DNA of 64,000 bases from Mobula hypostoma (lineage: Eukaryota). Below, one piece after another: positions 8,516 through 17,065 of this stretch (its first letter is position 1; each line of letters begins with the position of its first letter). The notes under the pieces are model-generated. The model ran no database searches, was not told the DNA's origin, and worked only from the letters and a program-made list of their open reading frames with translations. The DNA lies in NCBI RefSeq assembly GCF_963921235.1, contig NC_086108.1, forward strand, positions 43,774,001 to 43,838,000. Reading direction: 5' to 3'. Both the position numbers and the translations under genes were made by a program.

Positions 8516-10739
8516 TCAGAACCCCGCCCCAGCCTTCCCTCCATACCCCCTGACCCCTGTAGCCACAAGGGCCATATCTAACTCCCTCTTAAACATAGCC
8601 AATGAACTGGCCTCAACAGTTTCCTGTGGCAGAGAATTCCACAGATTCACCACTCTCTGTGTGAAGAAGTTTTTCCTAATCTCGGTCCTAAAAGGCTTCC
8701 CCTCTATCCTCAAACTGTGACCCCTCGTTCTGGCAACACACATCAAAGTTGCTGGTGAACGCAACAGGCCAAGCAGCATCTATAGGAAGAGGCGCAGTCG
8801 ACGTTTCAGGCCGAGACCCCTCGTTCTGGACTTCCCCAACATCGGGAACAATCTTCCTGCATCTAGCCTGTCCAATCCCTTTAGGATCTTATACGTTTCA
8901 ATCAGATCCCCCCTCAATCTTCTAAATTCCAACAAGTACAAGCCCAGTTCATCCAGTCTTTCTTCATATGAAAGTCCTGCCATCCCAGGAATCAATCTGG
9001 TGAACCTTCTTTGTACTCCCTCTATGGCAAAGATGTCTTTCCTCAGATTAGGGGACCAAAACTGCACACAATACTCCAGGTGTGGTCTCACCAAGGCCTT
9101 GTACAACTGCAGTAGTACCTCCCTGCTCCTGTACTCGAATCCTCTCGCTATAAATGCCAGCATACCATTCGCCTTTTTCACCGCCTGCTGTACCTGCATG
9201 CCCACTTTCAATGACTGGTGTATAATGACACCCAGGTCTCGTTGCACCTCCCCTTTTCCTACTCGGCCACCATTCAGATAATAATCTGTTTTCCTATTTT
9301 TGCCACCAAAGTGGATAACTTCACATTTATCCACATTAAATTGCATCTGCCATGAGTTTCCCCACTCACCCAACCTATCCAAGTCACCCTGCATCCTCTT
9401 AGCATCCTCCTCACTGCTAACACTGCCACCCAGCTTCGTGTCATCCGCAAACTTGGAGATGCTGCATTTAATTCCCTCATCCAAGTCATTAATATATATT
9501 GTAAACAACTGGGGTCCCAGCACTGAGCCTTGCGGTACTCCACTAGTCACCGCCTGCCATTCTGAAAAGGTCCCGTTTATTCCCACTCTTTGCTTTCTGT
9601 CTGCTAACCAATTCTCCACCCACACCAATACCTTACCCCCAATACCGTGTGCTTTAAGTTTGCACACTAATCTCCTGTGTGGGACCTTGTCAAAAGCCTT
9701 TTGAAAATCCAAATATACCACATCCACTGGTTCTCCCCTATCCATTCTACTAGTTACATCCTCAAAAAATTCTATGAGATTCGTCAGACATGATTTTCCT
9801 TTCACAAATCCATGCTGACTTTGTCCGATCATTTCACCGCTTTCCAAATGTGCTGTTATCACATCCTTGATAACTGACTCTAGCAGTTTCCCCACCACCG
9901 ACGTTAGGCTAACCGGTCTATAATTCCCCGGTTTCTCTCTCCCTCCTTTTTTAAAAAGTGGGGTTACATTAGCCACCCTCCAATCCTCAGGAACTAGTCC
10001 AGAATCTAACGAGTTTTGAAAAATTATCACTAATGCATCCACTATTTCTTGGGCTACTTCCTTAAGCACTCTGGGATGCAGACCACCTGGCCCTGGGGAT
10101 TTATCTGCCTTCAATCCCTTCAATTTACCTAACACCACTTCCCTACTAACATGTATTTCACTCAGTTCCTCCATCTCACTGGACCCTCTGTCCCTTACTA
10201 TTTCTGGAAGATTATTTATGTCCTCCTTAGTGAAGACAGAACCAAAGTAATTATTCAATTGGTCTGCCATGTCCTTGCTCCCCATAATCAATTCACCTGT
10301 TTCCGTCTGCAGGGGACCTACATTTGTCTTTACCAGTCTTTTCCTTTTTACATATCTATAAAAGCTTTTACAGTCCGTTTTTATGTTCCCCGCCAGTTCT
10401 TTCTCATAATCTTTTTTCCCCTTCCTAATTAAGCCCTTTGTCCTCCTCTGCTGAACTCTGAATTTCTCCCAGTCCTCAGGTGAGCCACTTTCTCTGGCTA
10501 ATTTGTATGCTACTTCTTTGGAATTGATACTATCCCTAATTTCTCTTGTCAGCCACGGGTGCACTACCTTCCTTGATTTATTCTTTTGCCAAACTGGGAT
10601 GAACAATTGTTGTAGTTCATCCATGCAACCTTTAAATGCTTGCCATTGCATATCCACCGTCAATCCTTTAAGTGTCATTTGCCAGTCTATCTTAGCTAAT
10701 TCACGTCTCATACCTTCAAAGTTACCCCTCTTTAAGTTT
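8516..10739 (-). pseudogene. CR1 ORF2 (reverse transcriptase), 5'-truncated and interrupted by a 96-bp in-frame insertion containing a stop
   Basis: ORF track 8780-10939 and 8516-8779 are the same frame, separated by TAG inside the insert; the first ~67 aa of the 719-aa ORF are read-through from flanking PLE sequence. Confidence 0.9.
8734..8814 (-). mobile_element. 81-bp PLE terminal-repeat mini-insertion with 15-bp flanking direct repeat
   Basis: GACCCCTCGTTCTGG at 8719-8733 and 8815-8829; the insert matches the PLE terminus at ~39550-39631. Confidence 0.9.
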
Positions 10740-12900
10740 TGGGCCTTCTTCAGAACTGGAAAGAAAAGGGGAAGAATGAAAAGGTGGGGAGGGGAGAGGA
10801 GGGGGAAGGAGGATAGCTGAAAGGTGATAGGTGAAGCCAGGTGAGTGGGAAAGGTAAAGGACTGGAATCTGATAGAAGAGGAGTGTGGACCATAGAAGAA
10901 TGGGAAGGAGGAGGGGCACCATGGGGAGGTGATGGACACATGAAAAGAAGGAGTAAGAGGCCAGAAAGGGGAATAGAAGAAGAGGAAAGGGAGAGGTTAA
11001 TACAACAGAAGGAGAAATTGATGTTCATGCCATCAGATTGGAGGCTATCTAGACAGAATATGAGGTGTTGCTCCTCCACCCTGAGAGTGGCCTCATCATG
11101 GCAGAAGAAGAGGCCGTGGATCAACATGTCGGAACAGGAATGGGGATAGGAATTAAAATGGTTGGTGAGCGGGAAATTCCACTTTTGGCAGATGTAGTGG
11201 AGGAGCTCGACAAAGCAGTCCTTCAATTTACACTGGGTGTCACCGATGTACAGGAGGATGCTTCGGGGGCACCGGACACAATAGACGACCCCTGCAGATT
11301 CACAGGCGAAGTGTTGCCTCACCTGGAAGGACTGTTTGAGGTCCGGAGTGGAGGTGAATGGAGTCGTCAATGTGGCACAGGAAGAGTTGGGGAACATTAC
11401 CAGGGAAGGCTTGGAGTATGGACTGTACCACATAGCCAAGGAAAGGACATGCATTGCTGGGCCCATGCAGGTTCCCATGGCTACACCTTGAGTTTGAAGA
11501 AAATAGGAGGAGCTGAGGGAGAAGTTGTTGAGGGTGAGGACCTATTCAGCCAGACAGAGGAGGGCGGTGGTAGAGGGAAATTGGATGTGATTTTTTTTGT
11601 TGAGAAAGAAGCAGAGAGCGTTAAGACCTTCTTAATGGAGGATAGAAGTGTGTAAGGACTGGAAATTCATGGTAAAAATGAGGCAGTCAGAACCAAGGAG
11701 TTGAAAGTTGTTGGGGAGATTGACAACATGTGAAGTGTTGTGTTTGTAGGCGGGAAGGAACTGAACCAAGGGGAATAGAATGTGGTTGAGGTATGCGGAT
11801 ATGAGTTCAGTGGGGCAGGAGCAGGCAGAGACTATGGGCCTAGCCAGACAGTCAGGTTTTTGGATCTTGAGTAGCAGGTAGAAGCGAACAGTGTGGGGTA
11901 AGTGAACAATGAGTTTGGTGGCTGCAGATGGGAATTCTCCAGAGCTGATGAAATTAGTGATGGTGTCAGAGACAATTTTTTGAGCTGGGTGCTTTTCAAG
12001 GTGAAAGTAAGAGGAGGTCTGGCCTCAGCAAGGTCTGCCCTACTATGACAGCACCGCCTCTGTTTGTGGGCTTGATGGTAAGGTTGGGATTGGTGTGGAC
12101 AGACTGGAGGGCAGTGCATTCAGAGGAGGTAAGGTTCAAGGAGGAAAGAGGAGTGCTGAAATCGAGCCAGTTGATGTCTCCTCAGCAATTAGAGATGAAA
12201 AGATCCAAAGCGGGGTATCCAAGAAGAGGAGGGAGGTTGGAAATGGGAGAAGGGGTCAGCAATGCGGGATGGGGAATTCTTGTCAAACAGCTAGGCTCGG
12301 AGATAAAGGCAACAGAAGAAAATCTTGGCGTCATGGCGTGTGCAGACTCACTGAGGTGCAGGTGAAGGGAAACAAAGGTAAGGCCCTCTGAGGACAGAAT
12401 GTTCCATTTCAGAGAGGAGAAGGCACACAGGGATAAGAACTGGGATCAGAGAGGGGAGGAGAGTTGGTGGTGTCAGAGAAGAGGGAAGGCTTGTGATATT
12501 CAGGGAATGTAAGATGGAGGCTCTGAGGACCTAAAAGACGATGGCAGAGACTGAGAGATACAGGGTTGGACAGTGGTGGTGGGGGAAGGGGGATCCAGGG
12601 GCCCAGTGGCAGCGGGGAAGGTCTGGGCTTGAGTGGCGGCCAATGTCCAGGCTGGAGCTGGAGCTAGAGGCCGCATTATCTGCGGGTTGAAGGAGTCCAA
12701 GAGTCATTGGAACCGGTGTTGGCGTTGTTGGGATCCACGGTCTGCAGACAAAATACATAATATATACAGAATTTGTTTTAAGTTTTCTCATTCAGGCTGC
12801 CTTTTACCTAATATCCAGTTATTTCTCTTTTTCTCAGATCCAACCACAGATGCTGCTCAACTTACAGAGTGTTTCCAACATCTACCCTTCCCTGACTTTT

Positions 12901-13959: not shown

Positions 13960-15388
13960 TAGTAAATCAAAACAACTGGACTTGCTGTGTTATCTAGAGA
14001 CGTTTTGCCACTCATCCGAGAGGCTTCTTCAGTTCTAGTCCATGGTGGGGAGCTCTCCAGTTTATAAGCTCTGGAATAGTTTATAAACTATTAGTATAGC
14101 AACCACATGAAGATTGTTAAGAGTCATAGAGGTAATGAGAGGGCCATTAATCTTCTCTTTGCATGAATGGAGGTGTGAACTGTTGTGGAGATGCCGGGGT
14201 AGAGGTGTTAGGACTGCACTGTAAGTAGCCGATAGGTGATGTCGTACCCACCCCCTCCGTTCAGGGATGGGTTTTCCAGTTTGACAAAGATTGCTTCCTT
14301 AACCCCTCTTTCAAACCACCTGTCCTCCCTGTCCAAAATGTGCACATTGTTATCATCAGAGGAGATTCCCTTGCCCTTTAGGTATAGATGTACAGCTGAT
14401 TCTTGACCCGAGGTGTTAGATCTCCTATGTTGGGCCATCCGTTTGTGAAGTGGTTGTTTTGTCTCACTGATATACAGATCTGTGCACTTCTCATGGCATT
14501 GGATAGCATATACAATATTGCTCTGTTTATGTTTGTAGGATCCTTGGGGTGGACGAGTTTCTGTCTGAGAGTGCTTGAAGGTCTGAAAAATACAGGGATG
14601 TGGGGTTTGTTGAAAATCCTTCTGAGTTTCTCTGAAAATTCAGCCTCATATAGGATGACTATGTTTTTCCGTCTGCTTTGCTCCTTTCCTCTGTCTGTTG
14701 GGCTGATGTTCCCGCTGGTTATTATTGCTGTCTTGATGAAGGTCCAGTCAGGATAGCTGCAAGCTTTCAAGGCTTCTCTCAAATACTTGCGCTCCTTGCC
14801 TTTATCTGTAATGTTGGTGGGCACATTCTCGGTGTGGTGATCTTGTGTTCTGATAACCCCCAACTTATGTTCTAATGGCTAATGAGAATCAAACCATAGA
14901 TACTGATCTGTGTGGGCTGGTTTCCTGTAAACTTCAATATCTAGATATCCATTTTCTTTGATAAGTATTGCACAGTCTGAAAAGGCCAGTCTATTGTTCT
15001 CGACGCCTTCTTGTGCAAATTGGATGTTATTATCCACCAAGTTGATGTGTTTTGGGAAGGCTTGCACATCATGGATTTTGATCTTGACATCAGGATAGTA
15101 CCCTGGACAGTAGAACTCAGATCAGGTATGTACTCTACTTGACCTTTGTCTCAGCACTACCTATTTCAAACACAAAGATGTCTTCTACAGGCAGAAACAC
15201 AGTTGCGCCTTGGGTTCACCAGAGTCTCCTATTGTAGCCAACTTATACATGGAAGAAGTAGAAAGGACAGCCTTGAATACCTTCCATGGAACATCAGCCG
15301 GTCATTGGTTCAGGAATGTGGATGACACCTGGGCAAGATCAAAATCCATGAGGTGCAAGCCTTCACAGACACATCAACTCAGTGGATA
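13960..15388 (-). mobile_element. Second, distinct Penelope-like family (Poseidon-like) with an inverted 5' segment (15089-15388 on +)
   Basis: Minus strand: RT C-terminus (YRKPAHTDQYL), RQKLVHPKD and GIY-YIG C-terminus (MAQHRR...WFERGVKEAIFVKLENPSLN). Plus strand: RT motif MGSPESPIVANLYMEEVE...WFRNVDDT. Confidence 0.85.
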
Positions 15389-15697
15389 CAGTCTGTGCCC
15401 ATTAGTAGCATATCCTTATGGATATTTCTTTGAGCTGGAAGACTAACAACTTTCAGGCAGACCCACAGTGTGCCTTCATTTGATACTTGTTTGGATATAA
15501 ATCCACAGGAACAGCCCATAGTTCCGAGAGTCCTCTGTATGTAGCTTCTCAGAATGAACCTTGACAAGGACTCTTGCATGACCTTACAGACCTTTCTGGC
15601 AAATGCACAGTCCACAAAAATGTGGCCATCATCTCATCCTTGTGGCAGTGATCCCAAGGGGATTGTGTGCTGGGACTGAACACTAAGTATGCAGAAA

Positions 15698-16062
15698 GGA
15701 CATCTTCTGTGTCTTGTCGTGCTCTATGCATTCCACGACGCTTCCAGAGACCGCCTTCTTGACCGTTGGACCTTCCATTGGTCTTGTCCGCTCAATCCGC
15801 CAGAGTCTGTCTTCACATGCTGGGATAGACAACTCCCTATCTCACCGAGGGTTTGAGACCCATCGACTACCCTCACCTGGTTTAGCTGGCTTGTCGAAGC
15901 CGTTGCCTGGGGTGTGGCCACTGTCGCATGCAAACAGCTACGGGGAGCCACAGGTGAGAGTGAGTGCCAGGTGGGGACCAAAGGTGGGCAAACCACCCTG
16001 AAAAGTATGTGACATGATCACCCACTAGAGGTGCTACCCCTCCCTGACACCCCATACACCCC
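15698..16062 (-). mobile_element. Structured 5' leader of a non-LTR retroelement (RTE-like by inference), 3' part absent
   Basis: GC/CpG-rich 365-bp segment that cuts a CR1 RT frame at ...YINDL and begins with an HDV-like ribozyme fold; no coding sequence remains to confirm the clade. Confidence 0.55.
15872..16062 (-). ncRNA. HDV-like self-cleaving ribozyme motif
   Basis: P1 GGGGUGU(16062-16056)/ACACCCC(15915-15909); P2 CUCACCUG/CAGGUGAG; P3 GGC/GCC; L3 begins UCCCCG; AGGCAAC before P4; P4 GGCUU-CGAC-AAGCC; J4/2 GCUAA with the putative catalytic C at 15885. Confidence 0.75.
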
Positions 16063-17065
16063 AGATCATTTATATACAGCATAAAAAGAAGCGGTCCCAA
16101 CACCGACCCCTGCGGTACACCACTAGTCACTGGCAGCCAACCAGAAAAAGATCCTTTTATTCCCACTCACTGCCTCCTACCAATCAGCTAATGCTCTAAC
16201 CATGTTAGTAACTTTCCTGTAATACCATGGGCTCTTAACTTGGTAAGCAGCCTCATGTGTGGCACCTTGTCAAAGGCCTCTGAAAGTCCAAATATGCAAC
16301 ATCCACTGCATCCCCTTTATCTATCCTACTTGTAATCTCCTCAAAGAATTCCAACAGGTTCGTCAGGCAGGATTTTCCCTGAAGGAAACCATGCTGACTT
16401 TGTACTATCTTGTCCTGTGTCACCAAGTATTCCATCACCTCATCCTTCACAATTGACTCTAACATCTTCCCAACCACTGAGGTCAGGCTAACAGGTCTGT
16501 AATTTCTTTTATGCTACCTTCCTCCTTTCTTTAAGCGTGGAGTAATGTTTGCAATTTTCCAATCGTCTGGCACCATGCCAGAGTCTAATGATTTTTGAAA
16601 GATCATTTCTGATGCCACCACAATCTCTAACGCTACCTCTTTCAGAACCCTAGGGTGCAGTTCACCTGGGCTGGGTGACTTATGTACCTTTAGGTCTTTC
16701 AGCTTTCTGAGCACTTTCTCTCTTGTAACGGTGACTGCACCCACTTCTCTTCCTTCACACACTACAACATCTGGCATACTGCTAGTGTCTTTCACAATCA
16801 AAACTGATGCAAAATACTCATTTAGTTCATCATCCATCTCCTTGTCCCCTGTTATTATTTCTCCTGCCCTACTTTCCAGCGGTCCTATATCCACTCTCAT
16901 TTCTCTTTTATTTTGAACATACTTGAAAAAACTTTTACTATCCACTTTGATATTACGTTTGTATTTGCTAGCTTGCTTTCATATTTTATCTTTTCCGTTC
17001 TAATGATTTTTTTAGTTGCTCTCTGTAGGTTTTTAAAAACTTCCCAATCCTCTATCTTCCCACTA
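16061..17065 (-). mobile_element. CR1 LINE internal RT fragment (family C), frameshifted
   Basis: ORFs 16514-16945, 16253-16477 and 15882-16166 give [44 protein letters not shown]. Confidence 0.85.

Follow-up and report, generated by a model that had tools for sequence, protein, structure and literature searches.

The minus strand of the window (the whole stretch of DNA analyzed here, 64,000 nt in length) carries, at 16062-15872, the head of a short repeat whose 5′ end is probably set by an HDV-like ribozyme. The element to which this head belongs is SINE-like and would lack a promoter of its own: it would be transcribed by read-through from outside, trimmed by the predicted self-cleavage, and mobilized in trans, a reading that we consider likely on the evidence given below. 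The copy in the window is itself best explained as a dead one, truncated at its 3′ side and decayed at CpG sites. The presence of HDV-like ribozymes at the 5′ ends of retroelements is established.

Each helix and joining strand of an HDV-type fold can be read directly from the letters of this 191-base segment, and all of the segments listed in the initial annotation of the window occur at the minus-strand places assigned to them (Table 1). The strands follow the order P1-J1/2-P2-P3-L3-P3′-P1′-J1/4-P4-J4/2-P2′ of a nested double pseudoknot, with a G at position +1, a 7-bp P1, an 8-bp P2, a 3-bp P3 adjoining P1′, and a rightly spaced C in J4/2. In the family majority, the two C residues of L3 also pair with the GG that follows P1′, giving the P1.1 helix. 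Two common attributes of HDV-like ribozymes are absent: L3 is not short (28 nt here), and a match to Rfam at gathering score is lacking. Positions within the element (i) are numbered throughout as i = 16063 - coordinate.

Table 1. Features of the element copy and of its immediate surroundings in the window.
Feature	Position	Strand	Remarks
P1, 5′ strand, GGGGUGU	16062-16056	-	predicted cut 5′ of G16062, the first base of the element
J1/2, 97 nt, long hairpin (P1.2-type peripheral domain)	15959-16055	-	compensatory changes between lineages
P2, 5′ strand, CUCACCUG, then U	15958-15951	-	pairs with CAGGUGAG
P3, 5′ strand, GGC	15949-15947	-	pairs with GCC 15918-15916
L3, 5′ part, UCCCCGUA	15946-15939	-	U, CC (for P1.1) and G kept in all lineages
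Extra L3 hairpin, 19 nt, GCUGU-loop-ACAGU in the window copy	15938-15920	-	followed by G before P3′
P3, 3′ strand, GCC	15918-15916	-	read from the sequence
P1, 3′ strand, ACACCCC	15915-15909	-	pairs with GGGGUGU 16062-16056
J1/4, AGGCAA	15908-15903	-	first two letters form the 3′ side of P1.1; GG in the family, AG in the window copy
P4, C-GGCUU-CGAC-AAGCC-A	15902-15887	-	closing C-G of the family is C.A in the window copy
J4/2, GCUAAAC, candidate catalytic C at 15885	15886-15880	-	from sequence comparison
P2, 3′ strand, CAGGUGAG	15879-15872	-	pairs with CUCACCUG
Remaining conserved head module, element nt 192-367	15697-15871	-	copy ends here, without 3′ module and without tail
CR1-type reverse transcriptase fragment (host), interrupted by the insertion	16063-16954	-	no resumption within the window
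Old LINE-like fragment, unrelated	15389-15696	-	abuts the truncated copy

The window copy comprises element nt 1-367 only (16062-15697), and neither a target-site duplication (TSD) nor a resumed CR1 was found for it in the window. Its core departs from the family majority at three places: an A replaces G at 15908, in P1.1 (G in 22 of 30 aligned copies), an A replaces G at 15887, in the closing pair of P4 (G in 21 of 30), and a U replaces C at 15920, so that the closing pair of the L3 hairpin, G-C in the family, is G.U. The first two are CpG>CpA changes, as had been proposed from the window alone, and the A at 15908 leaves one of the two P1.1 pairs formed. In J1/2, the copy has also lost 1 nt at the base and differs at several other places. 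Given its three core defects, the copy is probably inactive. The initial annotation further placed the predicted cut within a 2-nt microhomology at the junction with the interrupted CR1; the GG overlap with CR1 is real, but its meaning is ambiguous, as another CR1 copy reads ...TTGGATGA at this point.

The rarity of the motif was estimated with a structural descriptor specifying a 7-bp P1 that starts with G, a 3-bp P3 abutting P1′, an L3 of 7-30 nt with CC at its second and third places, RG after P1′, a P2 of at least 7 bp, a P4 hairpin, and C.AA in J4/2. On both strands of the window, the descriptor matches the 16062-15872 locus alone, in two P1 registers (G1 and G10). In random DNA it matches 6 loci per 656 sequences of 64 kb (∼0.009 per window), a chance estimate that is post hoc, because the descriptor was written after the motif was seen. 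The covariance model R1 likewise has this locus as its single match in the window. None of the HDV-type Rfam families matches the window, even at E 10, and a near-majority copy compared with all 4227 Rfam families gives one match, to the HDV-type family RF02682 (13.4 bits, E 3.3), which lies below the cut-off of 44 and whose alignment spans J1/4-P4-J4/2; at gathering score, no Rfam HDV-type model matches either the window or the near-majority copy. Nested minimum free energy (MFE) folding is not significantly different from that of shuffled sequences (z -1.64 and -1.63). Neither of these folds contains P3 or the L3 hairpin; thermodynamic folding restricted to the core yields P2 and P4.

The site of predicted cleavage is also where a large repeat family begins. 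In the genome (3.48 Gb), the first 32 nt of the element have 2452 matches with no more than two mismatches (control, 0), and a 365-nt query reading downward from 16062 returns 4564 first-look candidates, 40 of which were scored and have 93-100% identity. Homology begins at the same G in all 30 loci obtained with the 5′ part of the element (the window's own locus and 29 others), while the 50 nt upstream are unrelated; three copies in this set have a changed first or second base. An internal probe (nt 215-367) was also used, so that loci were not chosen by their 5′ end, and it yielded 29 loci besides the window, five of which are also in the first set. These start at nt 1 (16 loci), nt 2 (two), nt 3 (two), or nt 5 (one), for a total of 21/29, and the other eight are 5′-truncated, starting at nt 10, 34, 34, 48, 70, 160, 165, and 195. 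No homology upstream of nt 1 was found among these 29 loci. The proposal that cleavage would fall at the 5′ end of the retrotransposed sequence is thus borne out as to position. Other organisms' assemblies, aligned to a near-median copy, give the same unit boundaries: depth in one of them is ∼10 in the flank and ∼239,000 in the first bin, a figure that comes from contigs, which cannot show RNA ends (the RNA label of run X16 is a guess).

The copies have the attributes of a non-autonomous, non-LTR retroelement: TSDs, 5′ truncations, a simple-repeat 3′ tail, and no coding capacity. Of 29 loci of the first set, 21 have TSDs of 7-13 nt (located by script), which in 17 cases abut the first base of the element. 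The insertion flanks are AT-rich and unrelated among 58 loci, in which the site-specific insertion into 28S rDNA that characterizes R2 SIDEs was not seen. Copies are ∼560-565 nt in length and close with two 3′ hairpins followed by ...CGAUGGACGAAC(AAC)n, a tail motif that does not occur in the window. With the last 98 nt as query, 24 of the 40 matches that were scored are 100% identical over the full 98 nt, and the family is therefore young. The element is a non-coding, non-autonomous, SINE/SIDE-like non-LTR retroelement.

The initial annotation had taken the ribozyme for an RTE-type leader, and this identification fails: no ORF follows the ribozyme, and the short copies (∼565 nt) end in TSDs and (AAC)n. 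No LINE sharing the head or the tail was found. A search of the genome with the 3′ 98 nt returned copies of the short element only, patterns that exclude the element's own context returned only CpG or microsatellite variants of it, and four odd tail contexts examined for a LINE partner all proved to be the same short element. Similarly, no shared ORF is present in the 6 kb downstream of two copies each of lineages B and C (described below). One copy (L098, 2204-2629) contains a 142-codon open frame running from inside the ribozyme to its 3′ end; no longer relatives of this frame were found, and it is therefore probably a chance occurrence in a young repeat.

In addition to the lineage of the window copy (A), two older lineages were traced via loose ends of diverged relatives in other organisms' assemblies. 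Lineage B has 266 pattern matches in the genome (control, 0; loci L073-L092), and lineage C was met in a genome census of the L3 gap (loci L099-L105); both are also short. All three lineages start at the same G beside unrelated flanks, and their P1, P2, and P3 are identical letter for letter. The two middle letters of the L3 5′ part, J1/4, P4, and the apex of J1/2 vary between them. The L3 5′ part reads UCCCCGUA in A, UCCAAGUA in B, and UCCAAGUA in C, keeping the U, the two P1.1 C's, and the G; J1/4 reads GGGCAA, GGUACA, and GGUAAA, respectively, keeping the two P1.1 G's; and J4/2 reads GCUAAAC in A and B and GCCAAAC in C, keeping GC.AAAC and with it the candidate catalytic C. P4 keeps its pairing, with CGGCUU/AAGCCG in A, CCGCUU/AGGCGG in B, and CCGUCU/AGACGG in C. 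The conservation of the pairings and of the candidate catalytic C in other copies, on which the ribozyme assignment had been staked, accordingly holds in A, B, and C.

Across an alignment of 26 sequences, 89.9% of 1571 cells are paired (34-50% with the partners slid), and 44 cells have changes on both sides of a pair, compared with 19.8 ± 4.4 in shuffles. These both-side changes are confined to P4 and the J1/2 helices, and the compensatory events stem from three lineages only. By program count, two of the six P4 pairs are changed on both sides; reading of the three majority forms gives three of six, the additional one being the third pair (UG 10, UA 8, CG 5), which the program scored as one-sided and which is U-A in lineage A and C-G in lineage C. 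The apex of J1/2 differs between A and B in 16 of 36 columns (14 of 164 elsewhere, counted by eye), and despite this divergence both lineages form the same long hairpin (-45.8 and -45.4 kcal/mol). Covariation was found in P4 and in J1/2, but not in P1 (0/7 pairs), P2 (0/8), P3 (0/3), or the L3 hairpin stem (0/5). Because these core helices lack both-side changes, the argument for them is one of invariance and position. The second P1.1 pair is formed in only 12 of 24 cells, owing to CpG decay.

The most serious alternative is that transcription starts at G1, from a Pol III or Pol II promoter inside the head, and that the HDV-like fold is fortuitous or serves in reverse transcriptase binding or RNA stability. 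Core helices that are invariant, without covariation, are in keeping with this, as is the fact that a tRNA-derived SINE has the same 3′ tail, so that Pol III heads work with that tail. Also in its favor is a subfamily that was amplified despite a mismatch in P1: approximately 17 of the 100 perfect 5′ ends listed have an A at position 6, which gives an uncompensated A.C, although one or two mismatches at the top of P1 are described as frequent in R2 ribozymes (PMC3774820). Against a promoter at G1, no likeness to tRNA, 5S, 7SL, or snRNA was found in the element head. Furthermore, the letters that are kept are those that an HDV core needs (U, CC, and G of L3, the two G's after P1′, and the C of J4/2), while their neighbors drift, and a fold with a chance rate of ∼0.009 per window has its cut site at the first base of the family. 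We consider a transcription start at G1 unlikely.

The sequence GGGGUGU is present twice in all lineages, at nt 1-7 and, 9 nt downstream, at nt 10-16 (16053-16047 of the minus strand), where it contributes the 5′ side of the helix at the base of J1/2. This duplication of the P1 strand could permit an alternative register or a folding switch. It is accordingly conceivable that the ribozyme is real and that its P1 uses the second GGGGUGU or switches between registers, with the L3 hairpin and the doubled strand acting as a regulatory fold; both registers fit the descriptor, all three lineages retain the doubling, and one locus (L053) does start at nt 10, with an imperfect TSD. That start accounts for only one of the 29 loci from the internal probe, however, against 21 at nt 1-5, and nt 10-16 are already engaged in the covarying J1/2 helix, which makes a working P1 in the second register improbable. 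A chance resemblance in a GC-rich repeat, with a fold devoid of function, is hardly credible: unremarkable MFE z-scores and the absence of an Rfam match at threshold would suit it, but random sequence seldom yields the motif, which here starts at the first base of a repeat family and persists in three diverged lineages whose P4 and J1/2 show compensatory substitutions.

For the reading that we favor, in which a promoter-less element owes its 5′ end to an HDV-like ribozyme, the sequence of events can be outlined as follows. A source copy would be transcribed within a longer host transcript, in which the nested double pseudoknot would form with the help of the long J1/2 hairpin. Cleavage 5′ of G1, the site predicted from the fold, would then yield an RNA that starts exactly at G1. 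Finally, the 3′ hairpins and the (AAC)n tail may be used in trans by the reverse transcriptase of a LINE for target-primed reverse transcription, a step suggested by the TSDs, the 5′ truncations, and the tail. A structured J1/2 ("P1.2") is described as speeding or activating large HDV-like ribozymes of mosquitoes (PMC4908430).

The 28 nt of L3 are made up of a canonical 8 nt, the 19-nt hairpin, and 1 nt. The hairpin follows an intact 8-nt L3, with a single base separating it from P3′, and no other placement leaves the P1.1 C's beside the 3-bp P3. In HDV-like ribozymes generally, L3 is 7-8 nt long. The hairpin had been singled out in the initial annotation as a departure from the canonical form, and it is conserved: it is near-identical in A and B, while C keeps the stem with a loop that differs in sequence and length. 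Genome-wide, the L3 gap between fixed flanks is 19-25 nt in 2514 copies and 0-6 nt in four, all of them different, and the census of the genome contains no amplified lineage without the hairpin. To judge by these sequence comparisons, the hairpin is a conserved part of the putative ribozyme head, with candidate roles as a folding aid, as a contact for a protein or reverse transcriptase, or as a neutral passenger. A narrow check of the literature turned up no description of an insert in L3, and it is plausible that this variant is undescribed.

The head is joined to more than one kind of 3′ sequence. Following ...CAUCCACUGC (nt ∼380), the first 100 of 3106 matches continue into the A tail module (85), the module of lineage C (10), another module that recurs (4), or something else (1). 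At this one position the ∼380-nt head meets no fewer than three recurrent 3′ modules that are unrelated (L106/L107, nt 380-520). This pattern suggests a portable ribozyme head that may have been joined to different tails, by template switching or recombination as candidate routes. The lineage C module ends in ...CCAGAUGCGACCUAA, without an (AAC)n tail.

Several composites occur at individual loci. In L049 (nt 1288-1667 onward), a gypsy-like pol fragment continues the frame of element nt 1-380, which makes the locus a composite of the head with a foreign 3′ sequence, as is the window copy, which breaks at nt 367. Three other loci (L047, L048, and L061; ∼1805-2000 in locus coordinates) hold head-SINE-tail composites, with a tRNA-derived SINE body located between element nt ∼517 and a 3′ end common to the last ∼45 nt of the element. 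Box-A- and box-B-like motifs are visible by eye in the SINE body, in which ARAGORN finds no tRNA. The A tail is common to the element and to this SINE, and therefore one tail serves both a Pol III-type SINE and a ribozyme-headed element. In three lineage B loci (L074, L085, and L086), the first ∼80 nt of the ribozyme are missing and the unrelated upstream sequence is common to all three; a different repeat appears to have captured a 5′-truncated ribozyme head.

Genomic and antigenomic HDV and CPEB3 ribozymes have the same strand order as the head described here, and the weak RF02682 alignment covers J1/4-P4-J4/2. The family-majority letters of L3, J1/4, and J4/2 presumably bear a close resemblance to those of HDV. 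In contrast to HDV and CPEB3, L3 has 28 nt (theirs, 7-8) and J1/2 has 97 nt, and the ribozyme belongs to a multi-thousand-copy repeat instead of a viral or single intronic locus. The favored cycle of read-through transcription, self-cleavage 5′ of G1, and mobilization in trans agrees with published accounts of R2 and its SIDEs, of baggins and RTE, and of L1Tc/NARTc (PMC6765202; PMC3414825). The drz-Agam-2 type (mosquito RTE) is described as heading non-LTR elements with a double pseudoknot of the HDV kind and as having a long, structured J1/2 that brings P1 and P2 together (PMC4908430; PMC6765202), both of which are found here; the present element differs in that it is short and non-autonomous, has no ORF, carries the L3 hairpin, and resides in a large, vertebrate-type genome.

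In R2, the ribozyme is described as setting the exact 5′ end of a co-transcript, and the non-autonomous R2 SIDEs as retaining the ribozyme together with a 3′ end that serves in trans (PMC3414825; PMC3774820); tolerance of mismatches at the top of P1 is a further likeness (PMC3774820). R2 is, however, specific to rDNA, whereas the present element has unrelated AT-rich flanks and 7-13 nt TSDs, and is known here from short copies alone. The trypanosome elements L1Tc and NARTc, one of which is non-autonomous, are described as dispersed and headed by the HDV-like ribozyme Pr77 (PMC3383444; PMC6765202). Pr77 has 77 nt and doubles as a promoter, whereas the present head has 191 nt and two peripheral hairpins, and evidence of a promoter was not found in it. 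In twister- and hammerhead-headed short retroelements (Perere-3 T-variants, and SINE-like elements of schistosomes), a ribozyme is likewise described as replacing or adjoining the promoter (PMC8501958; PMC6765202), although the ribozyme is of another class.

A broader reading, which we advance tentatively and regard as somewhat short of an even chance, is that the L3 helix and the doubled P1 strand together mark a structural subclass, a portable and promoter-free head that was combined with several different 3′ tails and gave rise to recently active, SINE-like families, thousands of copies strong, in a vertebrate genome, and, jointly, that either activity or recognition by the reverse transcriptase of the partner depends on the L3 helix. 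A 19-nt helix in L3, beside the active site, is absent from the descriptors and Rfam models used to find HDV-like ribozymes. If ribozymes of this form are active, whole families of them would have been missed in large animal genomes, and in a vertebrate a ribozyme head would be able to stand in for a SINE's Pol III promoter and to be swapped between tails. The L3-hairpin family is also a natural experiment on the tolerance of the L3 region.

Two other features of the window involve retroelement proteins. Between 14208 and 15446, pieces resembling reverse transcriptase lie on opposite strands (15114-15446 of the plus strand, RVT_1, E 0.013; 14879-15121 of the minus strand), along with a GIY-YIG-like ORF at 14208-14639 of the minus strand; Pfam gives no match for either of the two minus-strand pieces, and by eye the region looks like an inverted Penelope-like element. 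The minus strand at 8780-10996 contains an uninterrupted, stop-to-stop frame of 738 codons, of CR1 type and with reverse transcriptase motifs, which may represent a young copy.
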